32,917 bases of DNA. Source: a virus. The stretch spans positions 1 to 32,917 of IMG/VR virus record IMGVR_UViG_3300026549_000035, one strand, 5' to 3'. Numbering within the stretch: the stretch's first letter is position 1; each line of letters begins with the position of its first letter. A program made the translations under genes and the position numbers. This document shows, piece by piece, positions 126 through 32,917 of this stretch. The notes under the pieces were generated by a model. It worked only from the letters and a program-made list of their open reading frames with translations, was not told the DNA's origin and did no database searches.

Positions 126-276
126 TAGTTTTCGGGAAAATTTTTTCTCGATTGCGCCCGGGCCAAATCAAAACAAAAAGAGCTAAATGGCTAGCCTCGT
201 GAAAATTCGACCGCATCGCGGTCTGTGTCGGTCACCATTCAGCAGGTGACTTTTCACAAAAGTCTTTTAATGGACA

Positions 277-348
277 CTAATCGCAACCAGTGGCACTGGC
301 GCAAACTTTAGCAATCAATAAAAGGGCTTTTACTAATTCAAGAGTCAT
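277..348 (-). CDS. Possible 23-aa hydrophobic peptide (MTLELVKALLLIAKVCASATGCD), apparently translationally coupled downstream of the AbrB-like gene
   Basis: AGGAG 9 nt upstream of the ATG. TAG stop. Followed by a structured ~150 nt 3' region with hairpins GTCACC..GGTGAC and GACCGC..GCGGTC. Confidence 0.3.
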   Translation of the reverse strand: MTLELVKALLLIAKVCASATGCD

Positions 349-3479: not shown

Positions 3480-3850
3480 TTTAACAAAAAAAAATCAAAA
3501 TGTGGAGCTTTCATTATGGGGGCGGATCTGTGGATGTTATGGTTACCCTCACCGCCCAATGCTATGTTTTTTGAGTTTTCCTCTCAAAACTCCTAGCTAA
3601 AAACATAGAAAAGACTGGAAAAAGCCACCCCGCTTTTTTTAGTTGTTTTTTAGGTAAAAACATAGAAATGGGAGGTTGAAAACTAAAAAACTGAGCACTT
3701 TCTTTAAATATTTTTTCTTCTTGAAAAATTTTTGCCGCACTCATAGCCGTATTCTAATAAGTCACCAACACATCCATTATTTATTACTCATAGGGTCTTG
3801 ATGTTGGGTATCCCTCGTATAGTCCTAAAGATGAGGTACCTATCTCCTTA
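3480..3850 (-). ncRNA. Candidate non-coding or leader transcript driven by a duplicated ~90-bp promoter cassette (TTGACT-17-TATACT) at ~3855-3935
   Basis: No ATG-initiated ORF with an RBS. The only ORF (3562..3744, 60 aa) is low-complexity with no SD. Internal direct repeats TAAAAACATAGAAA. Ends in a GGGCGG..CCGCCC hairpin plus a U9 tract. Confidence 0.35.
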
Positions 3851-4075: not shown

Positions 4076-4126
4076 ATGATAGGGGGTGGGGGGATTTCGC
4101 TCCCCCCACGGAGCGGACTGAGGGAA

Positions 4127-8250: not shown

Positions 8251-8319
8251 TTTTCGATCGTCCTTTCGTCTTTCGTTAATACTATTATAGCACATCAGCC
8301 CGGGCTTGTCAAGCCTTTT

Positions 8320-14204: not shown

Positions 14205-14365
14205 TGTGTATAACACTGTTGTTCTGTGTGTGATACTCTCTCTTTGTCTTTGTGTGTGTTGTGCTTCTCTCTCTCTCTCTTTGCTTCTCTTTGTGTGTAT
14301 GCTTCTCTCTCTCTCTCTCTTTGCTTCTCTCTTACTCTCTTTGAGTGTGTCACACACACAAACGC
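14205..14365. repeat. Low-complexity CT/GT-rich tract with ~38-bp tandem units (GCTTCTCTCTCTCTCTCTTTGCTTCTCTTTGTGTGTAT-like)
   Basis: Read directly from the sequence. Lies 3' of gene 14374..14703. The overlapping ORFs in both strands here are low-complexity artefacts. Confidence 0.7.
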
Positions 14366-14703: not shown

Positions 14704-14995
14704 GGGTGATTGTCCTCTCTCTCTTTATTGTATCTTTATTATAGCATACTCTTGGCTTCTTGTCAATAGTCAAATTGCACAAAGATAGTATTAGTCTTTT
14801 GTGCATTTTGCCAATAGCACAAACGTTCGAACGCTCCCCCAATCTTGGCACTACGCTGATGGGAGCGTGTGCCGTAGCGGTTACTGGGGCTGTAGGTTGG
14901 TTAGCCAATGCTAACTTAATAGGGAGATTACCCTAATTAGTAAAATAGGGGTTAGGTATTGCTAACTCAATTCAAACAAAAGTTCGAACAAACGT

Positions 14996-15036
14996 CCAGC
15001 CTGTGCGTTGGCTGATAGGAGCCAGCACCGTAGCGG
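14996..15036. repeat. 41-bp direct repeat, copy 2 (CCAGCCTGTGCGTTGGCTGATAGGAGCCAGCACCGTAGCGG). Copy 3 is at 15267-15307 and a diverged copy 1 at 14154-14193
   Basis: 37 bp are identical between copies 2 and 3. All copies end in the CACCGTAGCGG motif. Confidence 0.8.
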
Positions 15037-15625
15037 CATAGCAAGATGCACAAAGAGCCGCAATAGATTTTGTATAGTTTTACCAATCGTTAGAGATTCA
15101 GCAAGAGGGTCGTGCTTCATGGGGGTTTACACAAAAAATTATCGAAGAGCTTATTACACGCAAACTACGGTCGTTGCGCCCAGTAACGACCGTAGCAAAA
15201 CTAACTATCTCGTTTTAGGCGTGGCTAATCTTCACAGAGTTAGCCTTAGCTAATTGGTCTCATACTCCAACCTGTGCGTTGGCTGATAGGAGCCAGCACC
15301 GTAGCGGTTCATTCATTGGGGGTATTTAACTTACCCCAGGGTGTTTGACAGGGGTGAGATGCGACAGTAGGCCCTAGCATTTTTTCTCAATCAGCAATAC
15401 TTTTTATATATTTTTAATGAGATAAAAATGGAAAGAGGGGGGCACTATTTCGGGAAAAAATTTTTTTTAAAGAGAAAAAATTTTTTTGTCTGACCAAAAC
15501 TATCTTGAAACTAATTTTCATTTTCAATTACGATATCAGGAAAAATATTCTTCCCTCTTCTTTTTTTACCTTTTTCAAAAAAAATATGCCGGCCGCAATT
15601 ATCGCCACCGACATTCGAATTATCA

Positions 15626-15972: not shown

Positions 15973-16001
15973 TTGACAGAAGAAAAATTTTTTGTTATAA
16001 T
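15973..16001 (+). promoter_or_regulatory. Sigma-A type promoter TTGACA-17-TATAAT for the first plus-strand gene
   Basis: TTGACAgaagaaaaattttttgtTATAAT, then GGAGG and the ATG at 16031. Confidence 0.65.
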
Positions 16002-16030
16002 TCTATTAGAGACTGGAGGTAAGATAATAA

Positions 16031-17078
16031 ATGATAAAACTTGATTATTCTTTAACTTCTCCAGAAGATAGAAATAAATTAGTAAAAAAAATACTCGAAG
16101 AAAATCCTGACCCAGGAGAAAAATATCTAGAAATTTTGGCTGATTACCTTATCTTCGCCATGGAGAAAGAAGAAAAAAAGAAAAAGAAAATTCTTACTGA
16201 AAATAGGATGACTACCGTAAATAAGAGAGAAACATCTTTTGAAGGTCTTGTCGCTCAATTGGAAAATGGCGAAGATGGTATATATAATTTAATAACAAAC
16301 AATAAACAAGTAATATTTCAACCAAAAGTAACAATAACAAAAAAAGATTTAGCAGACATTCCCCCTCTTCGTGAATTGCGCGAGACTATTAGTAATTGGG
16401 AAACAAAATTAAAAACGGCTGAAGGTAAGGATCGTTTTATTATTAAAAAGGCGCTGATAGAAATGCGCAAAGACCAATACATAATAAAAAATTCTTATCG
16501 ACAACCAATTATCCCAAATAAAATAACAAGGTCTTCTAGTTATATCCATTTAGATGATAACACTAACGCATTTGATGAAGAGGGGTATCCTATTTCTGAA
16601 GGATTTTCCTTAATGAATCCAAAAGTTTGTGAAGCTATTTTATGCAACTATTCTCGATTAAAGCAAGATGCGGAAGGAAAGTTTGAAGGCGATACTTGGT
16701 ATATAATCTATGATTTTGAAAATCTTTGCGAAAAAGCCTTAGAAAAATATCCTTTATATATGCGCTTAGTCGAATATAAAATTGATGGTATGCAAAACAT
16801 TGATATTTAGGTTTAGCTTCAATTAGAGTTTGGAATTAAACATAGCGTAGAATACATCTCAAGTTTATGGCGCAATAAAATTCCTAAATTAATTGCGTCC
16901 GCAGCTGAAGATGAATATTTAGACTGGTATTATTTAAATATTGCTAAAGGAAAATATAAAAAATGTAGTCGATGCAACGAAATTAAACTTGCGCACAATA
17001 AATATTTTAGCAAAAATAAAACCAGTAAAGATGGTTTTTATAGTATATGTAAAAGTTGTCGAAATAAGAAAAAAACTT
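16031..17078 (+). CDS. Hypothetical protein. A 259-codon TAG-free body, then tandem in-frame TAG-GTT-TAG (16808, 16814), then an 88-codon C-terminal zinc-ribbon tail (CSRCNEI...CKSCRNKKK) ending at TGA
   Basis: The frame stays open through both TAGs and encodes a plausible CxxC...CxxC domain. The overlapping ORF 16941..17279 in another frame has no RBS. Readthrough depends on TAG being a sense codon. Confidence 0.55.
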
Positions 17079-17146
17079 GACATTGGGCAAAAATTCCAAA
17101 TTAAGGCTAGTTATTTATTATATTTTAATGAAAAGGAGGAATTTTT

Positions 17147-17908
17147 ATGCCTAGTGATGGCAAACAATATTATTGTGAAAAATGTAATAGAACAATGGCT
17201 GCCGAATAGTTTTATTCTTCAAACAATTTGGAGAAATATCCTAACGACGGCAAATTTCCTATGTGCAAAAAATGTATGACAATGCACGTAGACAATTGGA
17301 ATCCAGATAGTTATATGTGGATTATTCAAGAAGCAGATGTTCCATATATCCCAGAAGAGTGGAATAAATTAATGGCTTCATATGCGAAAGATCGTAATAA
17401 AGTCACTGGTATGACTATAATTGGGCGATATCTTTCTAAAATGAAATTAAAACAATTTAGAGATTATCGATGGAAAGATACCGAATTTTTACAAGAGCTT
17501 GCGAAATCTAAAAGAGAATAGATTATGAAGGAGCAAGGATATGATGCTCAATAGATTGCGCTCGCAAATGAAAGAGCTTCTTTCGAGGTCCCTTAGAATA
17601 TTGCGATTCCTGACCTTGCGGCTGAGCCTGTTAATCCGTTCCTTGCGTCTGGAACAGAAGATTATTTTGCAGATTAGTCGGGCGCAAGTGATGATGATAT
17701 TGATTTAACAGACGAAGATAAACTTTATCTTCGTTTAAAATGGGGAAAAACTTATAAGCCAGAGGAATGGGTAAAACTTGAATAGTTATATAATGATATG
17801 ATGAATTCATATGATATTCAAGGAGCAGGACATGAAGATAATCTTAAACTTTTATGTAAAACATCTCTTAAGGCAAATCAATTAATTGATATTGGGGATA
17901 AATCTTAA
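17147..17908 (+). CDS. Hypothetical zinc-ribbon protein (~253 aa) with five in-frame TAG codons (the first at 17204)
   Basis: RBS AAAGGAGG. CxxC..CxxC motifs (YYCEKCNRT...MCKKCMT). TAA stop at 17906-17908, immediately before the intron-like element. Confidence 0.55.
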
Positions 17909-17914
17909 TCTATG

Positions 17915-19010
17915 TTCCCATAAAACTCTCTTAATTGCTGGAAACTCTTAAAGCATTATAAACTACATAGGAAATCTTTTTTAAGATTAAACTAGAATGT
18001 TTGAAAATTATAATGATATATAGACAATCAGCAGCCAAATTATTTAAAAAAGGAATGATCAAAAATAATGTTTAAACAATATTATAATACACCATACGAT
18101 ATTTATGAAGATGGTAGATGTTTTAGTCATTTATCAAATAAATTTTTAACGCCTAAAATGTCTGCTAAATATCCATCTTATAATTTAACTTTTGAAGGCA
18201 AAAAACGTTAGGTAAAAGTGCATCGGATGGTAGCAGAAACTTTTATTCCAAATCCAGAAAATAAGCCAATTGTAAATCATATGGATGGCGATACACATAA
18301 TTTTCATGTAAATAACTTAGAATGGGTTACTTTTAAAGAAAATAATTAGCATGCTTATAATACTGGATTAAGAAAAAATGGTAATCAAACAATTAATAAA
18401 TATATAAGTAATTTACCTAATGAAGAATGGACTGATATAAAAAATTATCCAAATTATTTAATCTCTTCATATGGACGTATTATGAATAAAAGAACTAAAA
18501 GATTATTAAAGCTTTATATAAATCATAATGGATATTATAATGTAAATTTATGGAAAAATAATAAAGGAAAAACTTTACAAGTTCATCCTTTAATTTATTC
18601 TAATTTTACAAAAGATTATGATTTAAAAAACTATGTTATTAATCATAAAGATGGTAATAAACAAAATAATCAAATTTCTAATTTAGAAAAAATTACTTAT
18701 CAAGAAAACAATTTTCATGCTAGCTATATAATAAAGACACATAAACAAGAAAAACCTGTTTATTAGTTAAATGATTAGTATGAAATTATTACATCATTCC
18801 CTTCCATTGCATCCGCATAGCGTATAACCGGCATCTCAAATATTAGTAGAGCCATAAAAAAACAAGGTAAAGCTGGCGGTTATTATTGGAAATTTAAATA
18901 AAAGGTTCAACGACTATCCTAAATGGAGTAGGATACAAGCGTATCCGAAATGGAGAGTATTTATTTTATAGTTTGTAAATAAATAAAGATATAGTCTGAC
19001 CTTTATTGAA
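17915..19010 (+). mobile_element. Group I intron-like element carrying an HNH homing-endonuclease ORF. It has a 5' motif shared with two other elements and 3' ribozyme core R (GGTTCAACGACTATCC) and S (AAGATATAGTCTGACC)
   Basis: R and S elements at ~18903-19001. 5' element AACTCTCTTAATTGCTGGAAACTCTTAA at 17917. Homologous to the elements at 19775-20213 and 21577-22700. Exon junctions not resolved. Confidence 0.45.
18068..18766 (+). CDS. HNH homing endonuclease (~232 aa) with in-frame TAG at 18209 and 18347
   Basis: Motifs [40 protein letters not shown] and [17 protein letters not shown] are canonical HNH (HNH_3-like). RBS AAGGAA. Confidence 0.8.
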
Positions 19011-19048
19011 AAATAAAGAAAAAGTTTAGCGAACTTTAAAACAAAAAA

Positions 19049-19510
19049 ATGGTAGAAGGTTTCCAAAAGATGTCAAAAGTTTATGATTAGCTTATGAAGT
19101 CAGGCAAATTTACTGCAGCTTAGAATAAAGCTGAATCTGGTGAATATGTTGATTCTGTAGGTGAATTAGTAGCTATTTGTGAAAAAGATGGTTTTATTCC
19201 ACGTTATTATTTAGGAGAACCTAATGATAAAGTAGATTAGACTATTATTGATATGAAACGTTATACTCGTACCTTAATTACTGAAGAAACCAATCTTGGT
19301 AATCTTATTGAAGAAGCTATTAAAAATAACCAAAAAGAAGATGAAGAAGAACGCAATTCTAAGAATACTGATACTGGATTATTAGATGTTGAAGAATTAG
19401 AAGAACAATTGCGTGATGAAGACTTTGAAGAGTATAGTGAATTTTTAGATAATGAAGAGGCTAGTGATGCTGACCTTTTAAATTTCTTAACTGAAAATGG
19501 AGGTTAGTAA
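19049..19510 (+). CDS. Putative small terminase subunit (~153 aa, acidic C-terminus) with four in-frame TAG codons
   Basis: Immediately upstream of the large terminase, whose RBS is embedded in its end. The weak RBS of this gene suggests coupling or a splicing relationship with the upstream intron-like element. Confidence 0.4.
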
Positions 19511-19512
19511 TT

Positions 19513-19774
19513 ATGGCTTTACAAGATTTATTAGATATTAATACTAAACGATAGAAAATAGGTTTATCTGAAGAGCGCATTGAAGCTATAAAACCTGCGC
19601 TCAGGAAGTATATTGCGTTTTGGCGAGAATACCCAGACCTTTTTATTGATTTTTTAGTAAGAGGTCCTCGAACAGAAGTAAAAGAAGGAGAATTTCATTT
19701 CTATTTTTATTAGAGAGTTTTTCTTCGTTGTGTTATGCGACATTAGTATGTATATGCCGTATTCCCTCGTGCGT
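19513..19774 (+). CDS. Large terminase subunit, exon 1 (N-terminal ATPase segment up to the Walker A region ...MRHQYVYAVFPRA)
   Basis: RBS GGAGG. Two in-frame TAG codons. The reading frame closes at 19804. The exon end is approximate. Confidence 0.6.
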
Positions 19775-20213
19775 CAAAAAGTGGCGCCAATATTATTTTT
19801 CACTAATTGTGGAAAATTTTGGACAAAACTTCTCTAATTGTGGGAACTCTAAATTCATATGAATTATGAACAAGAGAATCCAGAGTAAATATAAAAGAGG
19901 AGTATGTTTAAATATAAAATTAGATAGTAGTAGTATTACAAAATGCTGCAAAGGGAAATTAAAAACTATAGGTGGTTTTATATTTAAATATGCTTAATTT
20001 TTATAAATCTTTAACGACTATCCTGAAAAAGTCTCCGAGGGATAATAAGTAGAGGCAATAGGAGTAGGGCGCAAGCAAATGGCGTGGGTGAGAGTCCCTT
20101 AAATCGAAAAGAGAAGATTTATTATATTTTATAATAAATGTGAGATAGTCTATTCTTATAGGAAACTATAAGCAGTTCATAAGAGAACGTAATGGAAGTT
20201 GCGATTCCATTAG
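19775..20213 (+). mobile_element. ORF-less group I intron interrupting the large terminase gene
   Basis: 5' element AACTTCTCTAATTGTGGGAACTCTAAATT (19826). R-like TTTAACGACTATCC (20012) and S-like GAGATAGTCTATTC (~20150), followed by P9-like hairpins CTTATAG..CTATAAG and TAATGGAA..TTCCATTA. Exon 2 resumes in a different frame (...DSKSFLSVMALMVRAILYPRANLFVTSGGKEQ). Boundaries approximate. Confidence 0.55.
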
Positions 20214-21574
20214 AATATTAAGACAGTAAATCATTTTTATCTGTTATGGCATTAATGGTTAGAGCAATTCTTTATCCTAGAGCTAATTTATTTGTTACCT
20301 CAGGAGGAAAAGAATAGGCTGCGGGTATCTTAAAAGATAAAGTAAATGAAATATGCACTTTAATTCCTGCACTCGATAGAGAAATTGACCGAAGAAGAGG
20401 TAAAACCCTTGAAGGTAAAGACTATTGTAAATATGTTTTTAGAAATGGGTCTACTTTAGATAATATTGCGGCGAGAGAAAGTTCTAGAGGTAAACGTCGA
20501 CATGGCGGGCTTGTAGAGGAGTGCGTTGGTGTTGATGATTAGATTTTACGAGAAGTAATTATTCCTGTTATGGCAATTCCTCGTCGTTGTATGGATGGTA
20601 GCACATAGGAAACTGAAACATTAAATAAAAGTTAGGTATTTGTTACTACTGCTGGATATAAAGGAACTTATCCATATGAGCGTTTAATTGGTTTTTTAGT
20701 GCGTATGGTTACCCAGCCAGAACGATGTGTAGTTATAGGTGGAACATGGCGATTACCAGTAGAAGTTGGATTACAAAGTAAAACTTTTATTAAAGACCAA
20801 AAAGATGAAGGAACCTTTAATGAAGCTTCTTTCGAACGTGAATATGAATCACGTTGGACTGGTGATGTAGAAGATGCTTTCTTTAATGCTGATATGTTTA
20901 ATAGAAATCGTATTTTAAAACAACCTGAGTATGAAGCTTCTGGTCGTTCTAGTAAAAATTAGTATTATATTATTTCTGTTGACGTAGGTCGTAAAGGCTG
21001 TGATACTGTATGTTGTATTTTTAAAGTATCTCCTTAGCCACAAGGACCTTCTTTAAAATCATTAGTTAATATTGAAATTATTAGTAATGAACACTTTGGT
21101 GACTAGGCTCTTGAATTAAAGAAATTATATTATAAATATAATGCAAGAAGAATTGTAATAGATGGTAATGGACTTGGAATTGGCTTAATTGATTATATGG
21201 TTAAACCTTCTATAGACCCAGAAACAAATGATGTTTTGCCTGATTTTGGAGTATATGGCGGAACTCAAGATGATGCGGCGGATGAATATAAAAAATATAG
21301 AACATCTGACTGTGAATAGGATGCTATTTATATTATAAAAGCTAATGCTCCAATTAATACAGAAGCACATGCTAATGCTTAGGTAAACTTGTCTTCTGGA
21401 AAAGTAAAAATGTTAATTGACGAACGTGATGCTAAAATAAAATTATTAGGAACTAAAGTCGGTCAAAATATGAAACCTGAAGAAAGGTCAATTTATTTAA
21501 AACCATTTACATTAACTTCCATATTAAAAGAGGAAATAGAATTCATTGTTTCCCTATATAGAAATATATAGTAA
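20214..21574 (+). CDS. Large terminase subunit, exon 2 (rest of the ATPase domain plus the C-terminal RNase H-like nuclease domain), with ~12 in-frame TAG codons
   Basis: Nuclease motifs YYIISVDVGRKGCDTVCCIFKV and RIVIDGNGLGIGLIDYMV. Ends TAG-TAA at 21569-21574, followed by terminator-like hairpin CTCTAAcugcGGGaaaCCCcTTAGAG plus a T5 run. Confidence 0.65.
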
Positions 21575-21576
21575 AA

Positions 21577-22700
21577 AAAACTCTCTAACTGCGGGAAACC
21601 CCTTAGAGTTTTTCATACCGCGGTATTATAGTGATATAATACGCAGCAGATATTATAATAGATATTAGATGGTAAAAATTGAAAAAATTGGGCAATCCGC
21701 AACCAAGATACTATTTTAAATTTTATTTATTATTGAAAGGGGAGTTCTGAATTATGTTTGTACCTTTAATAATAAATAATAAGACAACTCAATATTTAAT
21801 TTCTGATATTGGAGAAATTAAAAATATAAAAACAAATAAAATTTTAAAAGGAACTATTAGAAATGGATATTAGATGGTAAAATTAACAATAAATTCATAG
21901 AAAAAAGATTTTTTAATACATAGATTAGTAGCAACAACTTTCTTAGAAAATCCTTTAAATTTACCATAGGTAAATCATAAAGATAAAAATAAATTAAATA
22001 ACGCAGTATCCAATTTAGAGTGGGTATCTATTTAGGAAAATATGCTTCATCGAAGTAAAAATCTATTTATAGATAAGAAAATAAGAAAAAAGAAAGAGAA
22101 AATTATTCTTAATGAACATTGGCGTCAATATAAAAATAGTAATTATTGGATTAGTGATACTGGGAAATGTTATAATCAACAAACTCAATATTTATTATCA
22201 CCCATTAAATCTGGTAATTATTATAAATATTGTTTTTCTATAAATGGAAAGAAAAAATCTGCGTTAATTCATAAATTAGTTTATAGTTTATTTAAAGATG
22301 ATTATGATGAACAAAAACAAATTAATCATATAGATGGTGATAAATAGAATAATTCATTAGAAAATTTAGAATTAGTTACTAATCAATAGAATGTATTACA
22401 TAGCTATTATATTTTACATAATAATATCCATTAGATAGGGCAATTTGACACATAGAACAATTTAATTACTATTTACGATAGTATGAGTGCGGCCGCTCGC
22501 GCAATTAATGGTTCAGTAAGTGCTATTAGTTAGGTTTGTGCGGGAAAAGCTAAAACTCATAAAGGTTTTATTTGGAAAAAAATAGTATAAGGCTCAACGA
22601 CTATCCGGAAGGAGTAGGCTTTTTGCCGAAATGGGAGTCCCTAAACAGATAATGCTGTAGGTGAAGATATAGTCTGAACATTAGTTGAAAAACTAAGATA
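21577..22700 (+). mobile_element. Group I intron-like element carrying a tandem HNH endonuclease ORF. 5' motif AACTCTCTAACTGCGGGAAACCCCTTAGAG and 3' core R (GGCTCAACGACTATCC) and S (GAAGATATAGTCTGAAC)
   Basis: R and S elements at ~22595-22690. Homologous to the other two elements. Whether it splices an exon or is a degenerate intergenic intron is unresolved. Confidence 0.45.
21754..22590 (+). CDS. Tandem-HNH homing endonuclease (~278 aa) with ~9 in-frame TAG codons
   Basis: Two HNH modules (IHRLVATTFLENP...VNHKDKNKLNNAVSNLEWV and LIHKLVYSLF...INHIDGDKQNNSLENLELV). RBS AAAGGGGAG. TAA stop at 22588-22590. Confidence 0.7.
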
Positions 22701-22907
22701 ACGTTATTTTGGATGAATCTCAGAGAAGAAAATGAAGGCACCAATATTATTCTTAAATAGGCTAATAAAGGTATTAAAAAGGATAAGTTTTCAGCTTTTG
22801 AATATGGTTTATATTATATAAAAGTAGAAGAAGATAATAAAAAGAGAAAAAGAAGATTTAATGCTAAAGATTGGATGATGTTTAATTAATAGAAAAGGAG
22901 AGGTTAA

Positions 22908-23265
22908 ATGCGAGCTTCTAGAGGAGAGATCAAGATAGAGGAGATACTTCGTGATGCAGGATTACCTTTTAAAATGGAATATAGTTTTCCAGAATTAAAA
23001 AGTGAAAATGGCAGACCTCTTCGTTTTGATTTTGTTATATTTGATGATGATGGAAATATTGATTTTATTATAGAATTTTAGGGTAGACAGCATTATGAAG
23101 CAAGTCAAAAGTTTGGTGGAAAAAGGGGCCTTTATCAATAGCAACATAATGATAACCGCAAACGGAGATTTTGTGCATTACATGGGTTTACTTTAATTGA
23201 AATCCCTTATACAGAAGAAAATTTGATTAATTATGATTATATAATGCACAGAGCAGGTTATTAAA
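22908..23265 (+). CDS. Putative endonuclease-like protein (~118 aa; D..D..IEFQG signature), with two in-frame TAG codons
   Basis: RBS AAAAGGAGAGG. Motif FDFVIFDDDGNIDFIIEFQGRQHY resembles a PD-(D/E)XK-type core. Assignment tentative. Confidence 0.4.
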
Positions 23266-23289
23266 TGTTTAAGAAAGGAGGTATATGTT

Positions 23290-24984
23290 TTGGATATGGA
23301 TCATTTATCATCTAATGAAAATCTTTTTTTAAATAGTGAACAACGACAAGCACGTATTTTTAGTAAAGGATTTGATATGCTTTCAAGTAATAGATATATA
23401 GATTATCGAACAGCAGATAATAACTTTAGTAAAATTAAAGTTGGAGTTAAAAATTTAGAAGATGCTGTTTTAGAATTAGGAGAATTAAGAAAAACAATTC
23501 CACAATCTCCTTATTATAATAAAAAAGAATTAATGAAAGCTATCTTAAAAAATGATTATAGAAAACTAAGAGAATTTTCTAGATTTTTTTATAAAATAAA
23601 TGGTATTTATTCAAAACTTTGTCAATATATATCTTTTATGTATCGTTATGATTGGTATATTGTTCCAGAGATATTTGATGACAATGTAAAAGAAGAAAAA
23701 GTTTTAAAAGATTTTTCTAAATTATTAAATTATTTAGATAATAGTTATATTAAAAAGATTTGCGGCGAAATGGCTTTAAAGGTTCTTATAGATGGGTGCT
23801 ATTATGGTTATTTAGTAGAATCAAATGATTCAATTATGATTCAAGAACTCCCCGCAGATTTTTGTAGAACTAGATATTCTGTAAAAGGTATGCCGGCAAT
23901 TGAATTTAATATGGCTTTTTTTGATACTTTTAGAGATCTTAATTATCGAATGAGAGTTTTAAATTTATTTCCAAGTGAATTTAAAAAGGGATATATCTTA
24001 TTTAAACAGGGAAAATTACAACCTGATTATTAGGATTATCCTAGTTAGTTAGGCTTCCAAGAACGTTCTGGAGGTTGGTATTTACTTACTCCTGGTTCTG
24101 CGTTTAAGTTTAATTTAAATAATAATGATATTCCACCCTTTATAAATATTATTCCTTATTTAATTGATTTAGACTCTGCCCAAGACTTAGATAGACGTAA
24201 ATAGATGCAATAGTTATTAAAAATTATTATTCAAAAATTACCACTTGATAAAAATGGAGAATTAATTTTTGATGTAGATGAAGCAAGAGATATTCATAAT
24301 AATGCTGTTGCAATGCTGTAGCGAGCTATTGGAGTAGATGTTTTAACTACTTTTGCAGATGTTGAAAGTATTGATATGTCAGATAAAAATACTACAACTA
24401 CAAGAGATGACTTAGCAAAAGTTGAAAGAACAGTTTATAATGCCGCTGGTATTTCAAAAAATGTTTTTAATACAGAAGGAAATCTTGCTTTAGAGAAATC
24501 TATTTTAGAAGATGAGTCTACAGTTAGAAATTTATTGTTATAGTTTATAGTGTTTTTTGACAGAATAGTTTAGACTAAAAATTCTAATAAAAAGAAATAC
24601 GCTTTTAGATTTTATATGTTAGAAACAACTCAATATAATTATCAGAATTTATCTAAAATGTATAAAGAACAAGCTTAGATGGGACATTCAAAAATTCTCC
24701 CTCAAATTGCTTTAGGTCATTCTTAGAGCTTTATTTTAAATACTGCTTATTTTGAAAATAACGTTTTACACTTAACTGAATTAATGTTACCTAACTTATT
24801 AAGTTCAACAATGAATTTAGCAGATTTATTGGGTAAAAATGAACAAAATAATAATAACAATTAGCAAAAGAAAACAGGAGGACAAAATAAATAGGCTTCT
24901 GATAAACAAGAAGCGGGTCGTCCAGAAAAAGCTGATGATGAAAAAAGCGAAAAAACAATTCAAAATAAAGAGTCTATGAATTAA
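23290..24984 (+). CDS. Putative portal protein (~564 aa) with many in-frame TAG codons
   Basis: Position between terminase and scaffold. Size. RBS AAAGGAGG, with a probable TTG or ATG start at 23290-23296. TAA stop at 24982-24984. Confidence 0.55.
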
Positions 24985-24995
24985 GGAGGGTTATA

Positions 24996-26570
24996 ATGAA
25001 ACATACTAGTGTATTAAAATTAAATTCTCCGATTGAATTTATTGAAAGTTCAAAAATAAGTCCTTTTGTATCAAAAGTGCAAATAAAGGTTTGTTATGTT
25101 GGAGAAGAACCAAATAGAAATCATTGTGTTATTACTAAAGATGTTGCAAAAGAAATGGCTCCTAGTTTACGAGGATGTCCAATTGTAGGATTTTATAATG
25201 AGTCTACTGGAGATTTTGAAGAGCATAACAAGTAGATTACTATTTCAAATGGAGAATGGCGAATTACTGATTCAACTACTCCTTATGGTTTTATTGATTT
25301 AAATGCAAAAATTTGGTTTGCTACCTATATTGATGATAACAAAGTTGAAAGAGAATATCTATGCACTGAAGGATATATTTGGGATCATGCTTATCCAGAA
25401 GCAAAAAGAGTTTTAACAAATGGTAATAATCATTCTATGGAATTTGATGAAGAAACTCTTGATACTACCTGGTCAAAAGATTAGAATAAAAGACCTCAAT
25501 TTTTCATTGTAAATGAGGCACTTTTATCTAAACTTTGTATTTTAGGAGAAGATTATGAACCTTGTTTTGAGGGTTCTCAAATTACAGCTTTTTCTTTAGT
25601 TGTTGATAAATCATTTCAAGAGAAAATGTATTCAATGATGAATGAAATAAAAGAATTATTAACAGAAGGAGGAACGAAAGTGTTTAATACATATGCAGTT
25701 GAAATTGGCGATGCTCTTTGGTCTGCTCTTTATAGATATATTGAAAGCACCTACCCAGATGAACAAAGAGACGGGTGTTCAAAATATATAATTGAGGGCA
25801 TATATGAAGAAGGCGGTCAAAAATTTGCAATTTTAAACGACCATTTAAATACAAAATACTATCGTTTAAACTTTTCTATTACTGAAGGAGAAGGATTTTC
25901 TGCTTAGGGCGATCTTATTGAAGTAACTAAAAGTTACACCCCTGCGGCCGAGGCTCAATTCTCCGCAGCTGAAGTTGAGACATATATAAAAGAATATGTC
26001 AAGAAAAAAAATGAGGACAAAAAAGATGAAAAAGATAAAAAGAATTCTGAAGATTCATCAGAAGATAAAGGAAAATCTGAAGATGAAGATAAAAACAATG
26101 AAGGTTCTTCTGAAGATGATGACGATGAAGATAAGAAAAAGAAAAAGTTTTCTTATAATTCTTTAGAAGAAATTCCTGAATATGTTGAACTTTAGAACAA
26201 CTTTTCTAATCTTAAATCCCAAGTATCTAATCTCAATAGCACTATTGAGAATTTAAATAGCGAACTTGCTACTTTACGTGAATTCAAGCTTAAAGCTGAA
26301 CGTAAGGAAAAAGAAGCCAAGATCGCTGAATTCTATATGTTGTCTGACGAGAGTAAAAAAGATATTCTTGAGAATATTGACAATTATTCTCTTGATGATA
26401 TTGAAGCAAAACTTTCAGTTATTTGTTTCCGTAATAAAGTGAGCTTTAAAAATGATGAAGAAAGTGCAGGAAATCAAACCACTTATTCTTTAAATGGAAA
26501 TGAAGAAGAGGATCTTTCTATTCCAGCTTGGGTAAAAGCCGCTTTAGATACTGCTAAAACTTTAAATTAA
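24996..26570 (+). CDS. Putative scaffolding or prohead-core protein (~524 aa; acidic low-complexity linker plus a C-terminal coiled coil), with in-frame TAG codons
   Basis: RBS AAGGAGG. D/E/K-rich tract (KKNEDKKDEKDKKNSEDSSEDKGKSEDEDKNNEGSSEDDDDEDKKKKK) followed by heptad-like NLKSQVSNLNSTIENLNSELATLREFKLKAERKEKEAK. Confidence 0.5.
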
Positions 26571-26590
26571 TAAAGGAGGATATTTGAACG

Positions 26591-27616
26591 ATGATGTTTA
26601 AAGATTTTTTAAATAGCCGCATTCCTGCTGCATATAAATCTCAAGCAAAGTATGTTGAATTCGGCTATGGACAAGTTGAACCAAATCATCTTTCCGCTCA
26701 AAGAACTGGTCAAATTTATGCTCAGCTCCCTGCTGATCCAGCAATTAAAATGCTTGAACAAGGTCAGTTTGTAAAGTATGATTACGCAGCAGATGTTGCT
26801 GGTCAGAATGGCGTTGGTAATGGTATTGGTTTGGTAAATTTCACCGGAGCAGGTGAATGGATGCTCGTTTATAACGAGATTAAACTTTATCGCGATCATC
26901 CAGATGGAACTAAACAATGGGATTGCGAATTTGTTATGTTAAAAGACGATTATCAAGCTCGTATTTATAGTCCATATGATTATGAAAATGCTGAACTTGA
27001 ATATAAAGATTGGCATAGACTTAATGGAGTTGATGAAAAAGGTAATACTTCTATTACTCTTAATCAATATGTAACTCTTGATGTTGAAGGTCAAACCGTT
27101 ACCATCGGTGGAGATCGTTATGCTGTAACTACTGCAACTATTCCTGCAGAAGGCACTCAAGGTGAAGAAGGTTATAAACCAGCTCATGAAGCAAAAGTAT
27201 TCTCTTATAAGGGAACTCAGTATGAGCTTGACGAGACTGGCACTTCTAAACTTCAAGTTCCTGTTGAATACCCTTATGATGATGTAACTAAGGATGTTGA
27301 AGATATCTATGAGTGGGGCTTCACTAATGATCCTTGGAGACGTCTTGGTATTTATCATGAAAAGAAAATGCCTGCAGGTACCGCTATGGTTCCTCGTGTC
27401 TTTAAGACAAATGTAGGAGATTTATTTACAACTAACACTGTTGATGAAACAACACTTGCTGTTGGAGATATTTTAATGCCAAGAACTACTGATGGTATTC
27501 TTGTAAAAAATAACACTACTGGTGCAGATACCGCATCTGGTATGAAATGGCAAGTTGTAAAAGTATATACAATGCCTGATAATCAAAAAGGCGTAAAAGT
27601 AATGCGTATCGCTTAA
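26591..27616 (+). CDS. Abundant structural protein (341 aa), possibly a major head or decoration protein. No in-frame TAG. GC-richer codon usage
   Basis: RBS AAAGGAGG. Uninterrupted in the standard code. Composition distinct from neighbouring late genes. Confidence 0.45.
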   Translation: MMFKDFLNSRIPAAYKSQAKYVEFGYGQVEPNHLSAQRTGQIYAQLPADPAIKMLEQGQFVKYDYAADVAGQNGVGNGIGLVNFTGAGEWMLVYNEIKLYRDHPDGTKQWDCEFVMLKDDYQARIYSPYDYENAELEYKDWHRLNGVDEKGNTSITLNQYVTLDVEGQTVTIGGDRYAVTTATIPAEGTQGEEGYKPAHEAKVFSYKGTQYELDETGTSKLQVPVEYPYDDVTKDVEDIYEWGFTNDPWRRLGIYHEKKMPAGTAMVPRVFKTNVGDLFTTNTVDETTLAVGDILMPRTTDGILVKNNTTGADTASGMKWQVVKVYTMPDNQKGVKVMRIA

Positions 27617-27634
27617 TGAAAGGAGAGAAGAGTA

Positions 27635-28741
27635 ATGTTAGATAAAAATAATCTTATTGCTTTAATGAAGCAAGTTGCTAAAGCTGACCCTTCTGCTCCT
27701 GTTGCTTACTCTTGGGAAGGAGAACAACTTTCTTACGAGGCGCTTAATACTACACTTCGTAATGAGCTTAATGAGTTAGCTGGCACATATAGCCAATATC
27801 GTGAAAATAAGAACCTTATTTTCTCTATGATGGAACAAACTCTTGATGAGATTTTACCTAAAAAGGTAGCTCAAAGATATGATCAATTCGCTGAAGTAAA
27901 GAGCTTTGCTCAAGGCGACAAGGCAGTATTCCGTCGTCCATTGAACAATCGTGCTCGTGCAAAACAATTCATCACTCGCGTTGGACTTGCAGGTATTTAT
28001 GAAGTATTCAAGCTTGGACCAGCAGAGAAAGAAAGCTTCGAAGTTCGCACCAGTGCTATCGGTGGAGCTGCTCAAATTGGATTTGAAGAGTTCCTCGATG
28101 GACGTGTTGATTTCTCAGAAGTAACCCGTATTATCATGGAGGGTATGGACGAGCTTATCTATAAAGAGGTTGCGGCTGCCCTTAAAGCTTCTATCAATCA
28201 ACTTCCACCTGCTAACCGTGTTGCTGCAGTTGGTTTTGATGAAGGTGCTATGGATCGTTTAATTCAAATTGCTGCCGCTTATGGAACTCCAACTATTTAT
28301 TGTACTTATGAATTTGCAGTAAAAATGATTCCAAATGAAGCTTGGCGTTATACCGAAGACATGAAACGTGAACTTTGGGAGACTGGTCGTCTTGCTAGTT
28401 ACAAAGGAACTAAAGTTGTTATTTTAGAGCAAGGTTTTGAAGATGAAACTAATACTCGTAAAGTAATTGATCCTGGTTATGCTTGGGTTATTCCTACTGG
28501 AGCAGATGGTAAGCCAGTAAAGATTGCTTTTGAGGGTAATACAATCGTTGATGAATTCAATAACAAAGATCGCTCTCGCGAGATTCAGGTTTATAAAAAG
28601 GTTGGCGTAACTGCTATTCTTGCTAATAATATTTGTTGCTATGTTGATACCGCTCTTCTTGGTCAAATGATCAATTGGAACCTTAATGGTGTAGACGGTA
28701 ATGTAGCTACTTATGATGGTCGTGCAAGCGGCAATATCTAA
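27635..28741 (+). CDS. Putative major capsid protein (368 aa). No in-frame TAG. Followed by a strong intrinsic terminator
   Basis: RBS AAAGGAGAG. Size and position (after portal, scaffold and head protein). Optimised codon usage. Terminator at 28757-28794. Confidence 0.5.
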   Translation: MLDKNNLIALMKQVAKADPSAPVAYSWEGEQLSYEALNTTLRNELNELAGTYSQYRENKNLIFSMMEQTLDEILPKKVAQRYDQFAEVKSFAQGDKAVFRRPLNNRARAKQFITRVGLAGIYEVFKLGPAEKESFEVRTSAIGGAAQIGFEEFLDGRVDFSEVTRIIMEGMDELIYKEVAAALKASINQLPPANRVAAVGFDEGAMDRLIQIAAAYGTPTIYCTYEFAVKMIPNEAWRYTEDMKRELWETGRLASYKGTKVVILEQGFEDETNTRKVIDPGYAWVIPTGADGKPVKIAFEGNTIVDEFNNKDRSREIQVYKKVGVTAILANNICCYVDTALLGQMINWNLNGVDGNVATYDGRASGNI

Positions 28742-28756
28742 TAAAATATAACGGTA

Positions 28757-28794
28757 AGGGGGAGCTGGGGATATTCCCCTCTCTCCCTTTTTTC
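28757..28794 (+). terminator. Intrinsic terminator after the capsid gene
   Basis: Hairpin GGGGGAGCTGGGGAtattCCCCTCTCTCCC followed by TTTTTT. Confidence 0.6.
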
Positions 28795-28824
28795 ATTTTA
28801 ATAAAGAGATAAAGGAGAAAAAAC

Positions 28825-29406
28825 ATGATTACTGAAAATACTACCTATAATGTAAAAAATAGAAGTTCGAGCGTTGTTGTTTACAGAATTCCAGAAAGCA
28901 ATTTACGTCGTGAATTTGCGCCCGGAGAAACTAAGAAAATTCCTTTTGGAGAATTGGAAAAACTTACTTATCAGCAAGGCGGAAGAGAGCTGCTTGAACA
29001 GTTTTTGCAAATTGTTGATGAAGCTGTAACTCAAGATTTAAATATCCATAGAGAAGTAGAATATGATATGTCTGAAAATCAAGTTAAAGAGTTGTTATTA
29101 ACAGGCTCTATAGATGCATTTTTAGATGCTTTAGATTTTGCTCCAATGGGAGTCATTGATCTTATTAAAACCTTATCTGTTTCATTACCTTTAACAGATT
29201 TTAATAAAAGAAAAATCTTAAAAGAAAAAACTGGTTTTGATGTTGATAAAGCTCTTGCTCATATTGAAGAAGAAAAAGAAGAAGACGGAGGGCATATTCA
29301 ACCAATTTCTCATTAGCGCAGAGTACAGCCAGCTACTTCAAATGGTCGTCGAACTACTACAAATTATAAAGTGGTAAACAGAGAAGCTATAAGTCCAAAA
29401 GAATGA
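28825..29406 (+). CDS. Hypothetical structural protein (~193 aa). One in-frame TAG at 29314, then a TGA stop
   Basis: RBS AAAGGAG. The ORF track stops at the TAG. The frame continues 30 codons to TGA. Confidence 0.45.
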
Positions 29407-29423
29407 TTAAGGAGGCGTAAATA

Positions 29424-30032
29424 GTGAATACACAATTTAAGACTATTTACGACCGCTTTCTCGGAAAAATAACTGATGATATGTATGTAGAATTAACTCC
29501 AGAAGACACTTTAAGAGATTTGCAAACTTTATTAATAGATTCTTTACCTGGTTTTGAATTCCCTCGAATTCCTCTAGATGATTATACTCTTTAGACGATT
29601 GTTAAACCTTCAAATGAAGTAACTGATGAAGATTTTGTTCGTGGTCCAGTATGGCATGAGTTAGCTTCAGAGGAAGAAGAGAGTGAAGAAGTATATGTAG
29701 ATCAATCTACTTTTAACTTTGAATTAACTTCAGAAGAAATTAATATTATTGCTATCTTAATGATGTGCGGCTGGGTCCAACGATAGGTTACTTCAATCGA
29801 GAACACTCGCATGAAATATTCTGGCAGTGATTTTAAAATGACCTCTTAGGCAAATCATTTATAGAAATTAATGAGTTTACTCTCAGAGTGTCAAAAACAA
29901 TCTCTCCATATGCAAAGACTTTATAAGCGTAGACGTTTAATTTAGAATGAGAATAGTCCATACAATGGTTTTTATCGTTCTAATTGGGATACGCTGGGAA
30001 GGGGAGTATATTATGATCGATATGACAACTAA
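29424..30032 (+). CDS. Hypothetical protein (~202 aa, GTG start) with five in-frame TAG codons
   Basis: AAGGAGG 8 nt upstream of the GTG. The frame stays open only if TAG is sense. Overlaps the next gene by 20 nt. Confidence 0.4.
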
Positions 30033-30321
30033 TTATGGATTTGATATTACAACCGAAGAAGCCTTTGATAAAAATATTTCTAGATTAACAAATCAAATGT
30101 GGAAATTAATTCCCATGAGAGAAAATGAGGAAGATTGGAAAAAACAACTTAATACAGTTATTTTAGAAATTGCGGGTCTTAATGAAATTTTTATTGAGAA
30201 TCCGCAATTTTTATAGTTACTTTCTAAACTTGAAGGAATAAAAACTAAAGAACCTGATTTTAGTATTTATAGAAAGACTGTATTTGAATCAATTGGACTC
30301 TTACGGGGGTTATGTAAATGA
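30013..30321 (+). CDS. Hypothetical protein (~102 aa) with one in-frame TAG
   Basis: RBS GGGAAGGGGAG. ATG at 30013. TGA stop overlapping the next start (ATGA). Confidence 0.5.
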
Positions 30322-31391
30322 AACGAAAAGAAAAGTTTTTTACTGACGGATTAAGAAATCTCGGAGGAAGATTAGGTTATTTATCTTCTCCCGAATACTC
30401 TGGAAGTTCAGTCCAAGGAGTTTCTTAGATGGCTAATCGTCTTTAGTAGATGGGTGGTCGCACATAGCAAGAACGTATGATTCGAGATAAGCGTCGAAGT
30501 TTAGATAAAGCTTTGCTTTATTCTTATTAGGGTGCTTTTGTTAAAAAAGTGCAAAAATTAGTTAATGAGTCTTCTCCAGAAGACAATTAGCCTCCAGTTC
30601 GTGCTTTAATCAATCCTGATAAAGTAAAATAGGATTATGATGATAAAATTATTTCAATTGGATTTGAGCATGATTATAAAGCAGGAGACGTTTTTGAATG
30701 GGTAAATACTAATTCTTATTGGTTAATTTATTTATAGGATAAAACTGAACTAGCTTATTTCCGAGGGGAAATCCGCAGATGCAGACATACTATTAAGTTT
30801 AAAGATGAAAATGGTAATGAATGTATTACATATGCGGCCGTGCGCGGACCAGTTGAAACAAAAATAGACTATATTCAAAAAAATGGAATATCTGTTGATA
30901 GACCTAATTATTCTTTGCATATACTATTACCTGCAAATGAAGATAATTTAAATTATTTTAATAGATATTCTAAATTTTATCTATTGGAAGATAATAAGAA
31001 AATTTGTTGGCGAGTAGAAGCTACTGATTGGATTTCAACTCCTGGTATATTAGAAATTAGTGCTGTTGAGTATTATGTTAATGAATTTGAAGACGACGTT
31101 GAAAATGGCGTAGTCGGTGGCTTAATAGTAAAAGAAGAAAATCCTAACAATACAGAAGTTGAAAATCTTATTTAGGGAGAATCTTTCATTAAACCTAAGG
31201 GAGCTTATGAATATACTTTTACAGGAGAAGAGCCTGCGGTTTGGTCAATAGATAAAAATAAATACCCAATAGAATATAAAGAGATTAATGATAAAACGAT
31301 TCGATTACGATGGAATTCTAGTTATAGTGGACAATTTGATATCATTTGTAATAATATAACTAAAACTGTTGTTGTTGAGTCTTTATTTTGA
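30318..31391 (+). CDS. Hypothetical structural protein (~357 aa) with ~12 in-frame TAG codons
   Basis: Long open frame under TAG=sense, incorporating ORF 30840..31175. TGA stop. Confidence 0.5.
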
Positions 31392-31405
31392 GATAAAGGA
31401 GTTTA

Positions 31406-32014
31406 ATGCTTATGAAAGTTGTAAATTATTCTTTTCCAAAGTCAAGCTTTTTGGCAGTTGAAAAAGATATGAATCTTTTAATTAATCTATTCTTAAAAAA
31501 TGATAGATTAAAGAAGTTGCTTTATTATGATATTCCAAGCGCATTAGATTAGCCTAATGTGCCACAAGATAAAGCTCTTGAAATGTTTGGAAAACAAATT
31601 AAAATTGTTCCAAAACTAAAAGTTGATTAGCCAGATTTTTGTTATATTATTATCAGTTTTGATAATTTTACTGAAAATATGACTAATCCTGAATTTAGAG
31701 ATAATATAATTTCTTTTGATATTATATGTCATTTTGATCAATGGCAATTAAAAGATACTTAGCTTAGACCTTATAAGATTGCGGCTGAGATTGACAGTAT
31801 GTTAAATGACAAAAGACTTACTGGAATTGGCACAGTGCAATTTTTAGGTGCTAATTAGATTGTATTATCTGATGAATTTGCGGGATTAACTTTAATGTAT
31901 CAAACAATTCATGGATATGATGGAGAGGATTCAAAATATGCATAGAAACCAGGAGAGCAAGAAAGTATAAATGCTAATTGGAATAGGATTTATAATTAGC
32001 CTGATGAATTATGA
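31406..32014 (+). CDS. Hypothetical structural protein (~202 aa) with in-frame TAG codons
   Basis: RBS AAAGGAG. TGA stop overlapping the next ATG. Confidence 0.45.
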
Positions 32015-32732
32015 TATTCGTTTAGCATTAATGTGTGGCTCAGATATTCCAATTCCAGAATGTGGAGTCATATTTCATTAGCCTAGTATAAAAGAAATTG
32101 CTCTTATTGGCGAAAATGATTTTTTTATAGGTGTATAGACTCTATGTATTAATAAAAATATGATTATGTAGGGCGAAACTCTTTTATCAAATACAAGTAA
32201 TTTTTAGATATTTATGACAATAATGCAAGAAAAAGAAACTGCTGATAAAAAAGATGCTATTAAATCACTATTTTCTTTAATTTTTCCTAATCAGAAATTA
32301 ATAATAACTCCAAGAGGTATGGTTCTTAGCGAAGGAGAAAATAGTGCTACTATTGATGAAACAAATTTTGATTTTTTATAGCAAGTTTCTTTTTAGGCGT
32401 TTTGTATTAATACAGGTCCTATGGATGCTCAAACATTTAACCCTGCTAATGAAAAAGCTAAAGAAATAGCAGATAAATTAATGCGCGCTCGACAAAGAGT
32501 AGCCGAGCAAAAGGGTGGAAATGGAAGTATTTTTTCTTAGTATATTTCTACTTTAACGGTTGGATTAAATTCAATGAGTATAGAAAACTGTTGTAATTTA
32601 ACTATGTATTAGCTTTTTGATTTAGTAGAAAGATATATGCTTTGGGTTAATTGGGATCTTGATGTAAAATCACGCTTAGCAGGTGGAAAACCTGATAAGC
32701 AACCAGACAATTGGATGAAAAATATCCATTAA
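32004..32732 (+). CDS. Hypothetical structural protein (~242 aa) with ~12 in-frame TAG codons
   Basis: Frame open from ATG 32004 to TAA 32730-32732 under TAG=sense. Confidence 0.45.
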
Positions 32733-32754
32733 TAAAAAAAGGAGGAAAATACCC

Positions 32755-32917
32755 ATGAAATTTGGTGTTCGTGAAATTTGCGATGTTGTTCTTAGAGCAA
32801 AAGCTGCCCAAAAAGTCGGTAATAAAGTTTTTTATAAGAATGAACCAGTTATTTATTTTGATAGTTTAAAAACTTCTACTTTAGAAGGCGCAGCTACTAC
32901 TGTATATGCTCAAGGTG
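32755..32917 (+). CDS. Putative tail or structural protein, 5' fragment (runs off the window). No TAG in the first 54 codons
   Basis: Strong RBS AAAGGAGGAAAAT. Sequence MKFGVREICDVVLRAKAAQKVGNKVFYKNEPVIYFDSLKTSTLEGAATTVYAQG. Confidence 0.5.
   Translation, partial: MKFGVREICDVVLRAKAAQKVGNKVFYKNEPVIYFDSLKTSTLEGAATTVYAQG

Follow-up and report, generated by a model that had tools for sequence, protein, structure and literature searches.

TAG read as glutamine in the late genes of an SPbeta-related phage with TAG-free head genes and a retained TAG stop

Recoding of the stop codon TAG to glutamine (Gln), as in genetic code 15, is known in the crAss-like, Lak and Firmicutes-infecting clades of gut phages (Borges et al., bioRxiv 2021.08.26.457843), and proteomic validation of code 15 in gut phages is among the results of Peters et al. 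2022 (PMC9523058). The described phage closest to the subject of this study is phAss-1, a human-gut phage that reads TAG as Gln in its terminase, portal and tail genes. The wider group to which it belongs contains several divergent members with sense TAGs, some of them without a detectable suppressor tRNA (tRNA-Sup), as well as members with the standard code, for instance Enterococcus phage EF1 (Babkin et al. 2023, PMC10607447). Here we analyse a stretch of viral DNA of 32,917 nucleotides (nt), positions 1 to 32,917 of IMG/VR record IMGVR_UViG_3300026549_000035, which we refer to in its whole length as the window, and whose late genes are crossed by many in-frame TAG codons. The phage is a well-supported further example of the documented TAG-to-Gln recoding and not a new phenomenon. 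The window adds to this picture a conserved lack of TAG in head genes, a sigma-like gene that is the first to be recoded and is preceded by a host promoter of consensus type, three insertions resembling introns with recoded endonuclease genes, and a TAG that serves as a stop as well as a sense codon.

Sequence comparison places the window as the first 33 kb of a phage genome of about 177 kb that is related to SPbeta and to phAss-1. Positions 17635-32917 are 100% identical to an ENA metagenome contig (ERZ27252065:k141_7166, 177,555 bp), and the start of the window coincides with the beginning of that contig (window position = record position + 37). The gene calls of the contig carry the Pfam domains YonG_N, YonD_N, YonB, YomW, YomV_2nd and YomU_Tube in the order found in SPbeta, and include a tape-measure protein of 3,308 amino acids (aa). 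The closest annotated phage is phAss-1 (OQ749652; 41% identity in the portal and 50% in the YonB-like protein), which NCBI places under the 'Caudoviricetes code 15 clade'. More distant homologs, with 22-40% identity to the window, belong to SPbeta-like phages of Enterococcus, Bacillus, Clostridioides, Brevibacillus and Staphylococcus, and tblastn finds matches in phAss-1, Enterococcus EF1, SPbeta-like and phiCD211 phages.

Like phAss-1, its nearest named relative, the window phage decodes TAG as Gln in the genes for terminase, portal and tail, but the two are distant: the genome has 177.5 kb against the 136 kb of phAss-1 (the proposed Phassvirus), and its gene order differs from that of Phassvirus and matches that of SPbeta (YonG, TerL, portal, YonD, YonB, then YomW, YomV, YomU). 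Whereas phAss-1 has 36 tRNAs, including three tRNA-Sup(CTA), two beside nrdD and one in a large tRNA array, the window clade has a solitary tRNA-Lys(UUU) in the regions sampled. The YonG/YonD/YonB/YomW/YomV/YomU module and a large genome (>120 kb) are shared with SPbeta, EF1, phiCD211 and Brevibacillus phage Sundance. Unlike EF1, which has no stop-codon recoding according to Babkin et al. (PMC10607447), the window phage is recoded, and its identity to SPbeta-like isolates stays within the range given above. With the clades of Borges et al. it has in common a recoding bias toward late, structural and lytic genes, early genes compatible with the standard code, close standard-code relatives and low GC; in those clades suppressor tRNAs are detected in a minority of genomes. 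It differs from the crAss-like, Lak and other clades of that study in being a lineage with an SPbeta-like siphovirus module, and it is set apart from the code-15 clades by head genes that avoid TAG and by the sigma-like gene, the first of the recoded genes, in front of which there is a host promoter of consensus type.

TAG is a sense codon in the packaging, head and tail genes of the late block. On the plus strand between positions 15973 and 32917, open reading frames (ORFs) of at least 100 aa cover 7,170 nt of about 16.9 kb with the standard code and 16,272 nt when TAG is read as sense. As a control, reading TGA as sense gives 7,968 nt; reassignment of TGA was rejected because it adds just overlapping off-frame ORFs, and reassignment of TAA was rejected because it swells all frames non-specifically. 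When three predicted introns (described below) are spliced out, the plus-strand block 16031-32732 encodes 16 products with 5,092 codons, among which TAG occurs in frame 86 times whereas TAA and TGA never do. The 16 products end in TAA (11) or TGA (5), and TAG accounts for 37% of the Gln-type codons (TAG + CAA + CAG) of the block. Base frequencies at the position next to TAG resemble those found after CAA and CAG, with no sign of context-dependent read-through.

A preliminary description of the window, made from the letters alone, had proposed that TAG is translated across late frames that end in TAA or TGA, which these counts bear out, and that the HNH and terminase motifs can be read cleanly only if TAG is translated. 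Profile matches do span the TAGs without a break in the portal (PHROG 2739, 5e-71), in the large terminase TerL (TerL PHROGs), in the HNH_3/NUMOD endonucleases (PHROG and Pfam) and in the sigma-like protein, whose residues 31-347 match positions 77-393 of the 393 in the sigma-factor profile PHROG 5767 (E 3e-59), the last profile position lying well beyond both of its TAGs. In the standard code this protein would be cut at 259 aa, before its C-terminal Cys-rich region, and at codon 260 the relatives have CAA (47), CAG (11) or TAG (6). Some details of the description need correction. Multiple TAGs, ascribed to every late gene, are found in most of them, but the 341-aa head gene and the YonB-like gene have none and two more genes have one each. 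The double ending TAG-TAA, ascribed to several genes, holds for the YonG-like gene alone (...GG-TAG-TAA, 19505-19510), where 12 related loci have TAA at the same position; the TAG-TAA at 21569-21574 lies in the second TerL intron and is therefore intron sequence. TAG is indeed present in the terminase exons, which were counted as two and are three.

The standard code breaks the late block into short ORFs, and this could be taken to mean that the late genes are pseudogenes of a decaying phage or prophage and the TAGs nonsense mutations, a reading to which we attach practically no probability. TAG alone interrupts the frames in the window, as counted above, and in the relatives, which have 3,223 TAGs against 46 TAA or TGA in 351,838 aligned codons. 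The TAGs occur where homologs have Gln, and in seven other assemblies of the same or a near-identical phage (L003-L009) TAG is kept at 328 of 347 aligned TAG positions. There are no frameshifts, and the profile matches run full-length through the TAGs. Pseudogenisation is excluded because TAG is the only interruption and because its positions are conserved.

The amino acid encoded by TAG was assessed from the residue opposite each TAG in homologs, over a comparison set of about 85 loci that consists of 80 IMG/VR loci around the YonB-like gene and other ENA assemblies of the same or a near-identical phage. The codons opposite the TAGs of the window are dominated by those for Gln (CAA 1,427, TAG 1,246, CAG 348, GAA 295, AAA 248). 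Many alignment columns hold TAG, CAA and CAG alone, among them residue 73 of the TerL exon-1 ORF, residues 32 and 295 of the exon-2 ORF, residues 433 and 494 of the portal ORF, and both TAG positions of the nuclease at 22908..23264. Opposite TAG, 43% of the residues other than TAG are Gln, compared with 0.1-3.4% opposite other non-Gln residues of the window and 59% opposite true Gln codons. In 15 standard-code relatives, which have no in-frame TAG in more than 4,200 aligned codons, Gln makes up 54% of the residues opposite the TAGs of the window and holds the majority in 39 of 82 columns. A mass balance gives the same answer, as Gln (3.10%) and TAG (1.20%) in recoded relatives add up to 4.30%, against 4.28% Gln in the standard-code relatives, with glutamate (Glu) and lysine (Lys) unchanged. 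Because the aligned codons, the likelihood of the substitution profile (below), the standard-code relatives and the mass balance agree, we conclude from these alignments that TAG stands for Gln, in support of the code-15-like reading first proposed for the window.

It is very improbable that TAG is sense but encodes another residue (Glu, Lys, tyrosine, leucine, serine, tryptophan or pyrrolysine). Glu and Lys are the next residues after Gln opposite TAG, at about 7% each, and the program ARAGORN names any CUA anticodon 'Pyl'. Many Bacillota make Gln-tRNA through a Glu-tRNA intermediate, and misincorporation of Glu is thus conceivable. Against this, the TAG substitution profile has a log-likelihood of -9,527 for Gln, -14,170 for Glu, the next best, and -14,470 for Lys, and many columns are of the TAG/CAA/CAG-only kind. 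The Glu and Lys contents are equal in recoded and standard-code relatives, and Gln is down by exactly the TAG fraction.

Two adjacent head genes, encoding the 341-aa protein and the YonB-like protein (26591-27616 and 27635-28741), have none of their 31 Gln-type codons as TAG (P about 2e-8 against the rest of the block). With 37-40%, their GC content is the highest among the late genes. This pattern is conserved: in 68 recoded relatives the TAG share of Gln-type codons is 1% in the 341-aa gene, 1% in the YonB-like gene and 5% in the 193-aa gene, compared with 20-50% in other late genes, and the YonB-like homolog of phAss-1 is an intact standard-code coding sequence. The YonB-like protein is a putative HK97-fold major capsid protein. 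It has a weak match to NF042927, an HK97-fold major capsid family, and a Protein Data Bank sequence search with the two TAG-free head proteins found no match, so that the assignment rests on gene position, the Pfam YonB domain and the weak HK97 match. We infer that in the most abundantly made virion proteins there may have been selection against a codon that is decoded with limited capacity.

Conservation of this kind also bears on the chance, which we consider negligible, that sequencing, assembly or base-modification artefacts made the TAGs, for instance by C-to-T miscalls that turn CAG into TAG. The window does begin with a poly-T run of 87 nt (positions 1-87) that is not found at the equivalent position of sister assembly L175 and within which the ENA contig starts; it is most likely a contig-end artefact. 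However, the same TAGs are present in assemblies from several ENA samples, which effectively refutes this explanation, most Gln codons opposite TAG are CAA, from which TAG differs at two positions, and the absence of TAG from specific genes is conserved across the 68 relatives.

The early block, on the opposite strand, follows another pattern. It contains 27 near-consensus extended -10 sigma-A-type promoters (TTGACW-17-TGnTATAAT) on the minus strand between 97 and 14766, where 0.38 are expected in shuffled sequence, each followed by a GGAGG-type ribosome-binding site, with roughly one promoter per small gene; the sole such promoter of the late block precedes the sigma-like gene. The early/late assignment is thus supported apart from codon use, with 27 promoters of this type for the early strand and a single one for the late strand. 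In the 22 modelled early genes none of the 54 Gln-type codons is an internal TAG, compared with 87 of 231 in the late genes (Fisher P = 3e-10), and the early stops are TAA (18), TGA (3) and TAG (1). Recoding of the whole early block was rejected, as TAG read-through joins no substantial early ORFs, the exception being a 38-aa ORF discussed below. The one TAG stop, at 7849-7851, is genuine: homologs of the gene end at the same position (...WLEDMAA-stop compared with ...WLEEKLK-TAG), and the sequence past the TAG is frame-shifted in sister assembly L179. On this comparative evidence TAG is used as both stop and Gln codon in one genome. The initial contrast between an early block with TAG as an ordinary stop and a recoded late block therefore stands in outline, through this stop, the codon counts and the promoters, but it is not absolute, since one of the two TAG stops cited for it (277-279) is sense codon 24 of the 38-aa gene. 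The other belongs to an ORF (3562..3744) without comparative support as a gene.

If the host itself read TAG as Gln, or lacked release factor 1 (RF1), the phage would simply use the code of its host and would not need to switch codes itself. In the GTDB genome collection, relatives of the window are found only on contigs of metagenome-assembled genomes (MAGs) from gut and rumen, several of them 150-175 kb and thus phage-sized, and mostly binned as Bacillota, Clostridia or Lachnospiraceae; because of this binning the host is probably a Firmicute (Bacillota) of the gut or rumen. That the host is known just through these relatives leaves some room for the host-code explanation, as does the lack of a phage suppressor tRNA in the window, its flanks and more than 250 related loci. 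Still, we regard it as very improbable. The TAG stop of the early gene aligns with the stop of its homologs, early and capsid genes avoid TAG, and standard-code relatives are found inside the same clade at similar divergence. To our knowledge no bacterium with TAG as Gln has been described. For all TAG-recoded clades, Borges et al. (bioRxiv 2021.08.26.457843) predicted standard-code hosts among the Firmicutes and Bacteroidetes. Within the clade of the window, 19 relatives (L033-L045, L057-L063) with 60-66% protein identity have at most one in-frame TAG and are of standard code, and a rough neighbour-joining tree of six late proteins from 75 taxa shows them in two groups nested among recoded lineages. 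This suggests at least two changes of code state, and possibly a reversion to the standard code, on a tree that has no support values or control for recombination.

Taken as a whole, the window very probably holds two coding regimes, a late block in which TAG is Gln and TAA and TGA are stops, and an early block with a near-standard code. Several observations weigh against this reading. The early/late timing is drawn from promoters and gene content only, and the split between the blocks is not clean. The 38-aa Cys-rich ORF on the early strand (232-348; MTLELVKALLLIAKVCASATGCDxCPLKDFCEKSPAEW) reads TAG as sense at its codon 24: in every one of at least 18 homologs the stop is a TAA or TGA at codon 39, and relatives have TAG at codon 19 (Q in other members) or at codon 32. 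A four-gene late-strand operon in the early region, at 17236-19094 of sister assembly L175, carries 10, 1, 1 and 1 TAGs, which implies that recoding follows transcription units and not virion genes alone. We also found no tRNA with a CUA anticodon in about 49 kb (27%) of the 177.5-kb genome, comprising the window, 5.8 kb of right flank (L002) and 10 kb of left flank in five sister assemblies of the same or a near-identical phage, nor in more than 250 related loci, searched over 10 kb on either side of four anchor genes (240 IMG/VR relatives around the YonB-like, sigma-like and NT5C-like genes, 15 genome-collection contigs, and the neighbourhoods of paralogous early genes). No release factor or aminoacyl-tRNA synthetase was found among the scanned window proteins, which were those of the late block as far as YonB together with ten more. 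The negative tRNA result is uninformative, because Borges et al. (bioRxiv 2021.08.26.457843) detected suppressor tRNAs in only some 40% of the genomes that recode TAG, and because our search covers 27% of this one.

Other searches of the same kind returned little. Exact 41-mer searches for the source genome had no match in IMG/VR or JGI metagenomes. Rfam models run over 145 kb of flanks found no further tRNA, and a probe with NrdD of phAss-1, whose gene adjoins suppressor tRNAs in that phage, matched in the own genus of phAss-1 alone. The lone tRNA-Lys(UUU) of the window, the only common tRNA of the clade in the sampled regions, is preceded by a G-rich hairpin (about 4080-4110) and recurs near NT5C-like genes in many relatives. 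Used as a probe it retrieved one unrelated contig only (L174, IMGVR_UViG_3300031867_000045), which shares just the tRNA-Lys with the window and has a seven-tRNA array including, at 285-357, a predicted 'tRNA-Stop' with the anticodon UUA (ochre); the T-loop of this tRNA is atypical, and the prediction may be spurious. The L175 operon lies about 7-9 kb to the left of the window start, and its first gene encodes a 209-aa MarR-like winged-helix protein (sub-threshold Pfam matches).

A mechanism consistent with the two regimes can be proposed from the code-15 literature (Borges et al.; Babkin et al.). A UAG-decoding tRNA(CUA), encoded in the remaining 129 kb or hard to detect, would be charged via the host Gln pathway; before it accumulates, TAG-bearing late genes would yield truncated products, and recoding would thereby gate late and lytic functions at the level of translation. 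The tRNA(CUA) is suggested as the decoder by the family of code-15 phages. The position of the sigma-like factor, as the first recoded gene behind a perfect host promoter, makes a link between the code switch and late transcription plausible, if speculative. A more far-reaching version, which we think unlikely, is that the clade reads UAG as Gln without a canonical phage suppressor tRNA (with a non-canonical RNA or a modified tRNA of the host as decoder, or by interfering with RF1), with a code that may be labile in both directions, as the two apparently nested standard-code groups would suggest, a switch wired into transcription through the TAG-gated sigma-like factor, and capsid genes kept TAG-free for bulk synthesis.

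Group I introns with HNH enzymes are known from phages, as in the DNA-polymerase intron of SPO1 with I-HmuI and the ribonucleotide-reductase introns of SPbeta. Three insertions in the packaging genes of the window, one in the YonG-like gene and two in TerL within 5 kb, resemble them, with precise insertion relative to intron-less alleles, upstream exons that end in U (T) and insertions that end in G in all three cases, structured RNA, and HNH/NUMOD ORFs in two of the three. When the exons are joined in silico, the sequence of the uninterrupted homologs is restored exactly (FPRA-YSKS-FLSV at TerL intron 1, KEEMMNLR at TerL intron 2), with a TerL of 584 aa, equal to that of the uninterrupted homolog in L012, and a YonG-like product of 403 aa. 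TerL intron 1 folds more stably than shuffled sequence (z = -5.3), and its splice-site U is in a U.G pair within a P1-like helix. Unlike the SPO1 and SPbeta introns, the insertions have no match to the Rfam group I models, or to those for group II, whether the gathering score or E <= 1 is taken as the limit, and for this reason we call them group-I-like mobile introns, with predicted splicing, and not more. Their endonuclease genes also differ in having 5 and 9 sense TAGs, two of the nine in HNH-2 falling inside its HNH_3 domain match. With TerL intron 2 in place, the '58-aa ORF' at 22713-22889 would therefore be the last TerL exon. Table 1 gives the coordinates of these and the other features.

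Table 1. Features of the window in order of position (aa, amino acids; TAG counts are in-frame codons).
Feature	Position	Strand	Evidence or remarks
Early block of small, poorly conserved genes	1 to ~15,970	-	
38-aa Cys-rich ORF, sense TAG at codon 24 (277-279)	232..348	-	Just downstream of AbrB/SpoVT-like regulator gene (368-619)
tRNA-Lys(UUU), only tRNA of the window, not a suppressor	4001-4075	-	ARAGORN, Rfam
Early gene with genuine TAG stop (TAG 7849-7851)	7852-8295	-	Homologs end at same position
Sigma-A-type promoter, perfect TTGACA-17-TATAAT with TG	15973..16001	+	12/12 match, directly upstream of sigma-like gene
PHROG 5767 'sigma factor' family protein, 349 aa, TAG at codons 260 and 262 (16808, 16814)	16031..17080	+	
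YonG-like exon 1, 6 TAG	17147..17899	+	PHROG 3314 positions 7-190; Pfam YonG_N (ENA gene call); junction relative to uninterrupted L003 gene
Predicted intron-like insertion in YonG-like gene, 1,152 nt	17900..19051	+	Not in L003 (97% identical, continuous 403-aa gene)
HNH-1 homing endonuclease, 277 aa, 5 TAG	18068-18901	+	HNH_3, NUMOD4 domains
YonG-like exon 2, 4 TAG, final TAG adjoining TAA stop	19052..19510	+	PHROG 3314 positions 192-285
Large terminase TerL exon 1, 3 TAG	19513..19774	+	
Predicted TerL intron 1, 448 nt, ORF-less	19775..20222	+	About 135 related loci with uninterrupted TerL here
TerL exon 2, 9 TAG	20223..21537	+	
Predicted TerL intron 2, 1,174 nt	21538..22711	+	152 related loci without insertion
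HNH-2 homing endonuclease, 278 aa, 9 TAG	21754-22590	+	HNH_3, NUMOD4, NUMOD1 domains
TerL exon 3, 1 TAG	22712..22889	+	90% identity to L012 TerL residues 527-584
DUF2726-like nuclease, 118 aa, 2 TAG	22908..23264	+	
Portal protein (YonE-like), 562 aa, 11 TAG	23296..24984	+	PHROG 2739, 5e-71
YonD-like head protein, 524 aa, 4 TAG	24996..26570	+	
Head-module protein, 341 aa, 0 TAG, 17 CAA/CAG, 37% GC	26591..27616	+	
YonB-like putative HK97-fold major capsid protein, 368 aa, 0 TAG, 14 CAA/CAG, 40% GC	27635..28741	+	Pfam YonB (ENA gene call)
193-aa protein, 1 TAG	28825..29406	+	
Virion-module protein, 183 aa, 5 TAG	29481..30032	+	
102-aa protein, 1 TAG	30013..30321	+	
357-aa protein, 9 TAG	30318..31391	+	
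YomW-like protein, 200 aa, 6 TAG	31412..32014	+	
YomV-like protein, 253 aa, 8 TAG	31971..32732	+	
YomU-like tail tube gene start, cut by window end, no TAG in visible part	32755..32917	+	

The early block also contains repeated sequence. Paralogous genes of about 122 aa, in two subfamilies, are found on the minus strand at 723-1091, 1197-1565, 3049-3417 and 4127-4492, with a DNA repeat of 300 nt (1218-1517 and 4142-4441, 77% identical); one paralog directly precedes the tRNA-Lys. This family has 1,210 homologs in a large protein database, mostly on short contigs, and a few sources label them 'predicted transcriptional regulator'. An ORF-poor stretch just upstream of the early/late junction contains (at 14225-14340 and 14839-15307) a CT-rich imperfect tandem repeat with periods of about 22-40 nt, and also holds three copies of a GC-rich direct repeat of 42 nt, two of which are 98% identical and 271 nt apart.

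These findings leave the known picture of code-15 phages unchanged, and they have a practical consequence for annotation: this genome and dozens of related phage contigs of 100-200 kb from gut and rumen need translation table 15 and removal of the three introns, without which the terminase, portal and tail genes look shattered. The clade is at the same time a natural experiment, in which recoded and standard-code members have 60-67% protein identity in the same module and the TAG share of Gln codons ranges from 0 to 75% per gene. It permits tests of how recoding arises or reverts, and of whether the efficiency of suppression limits the expression of abundant proteins.

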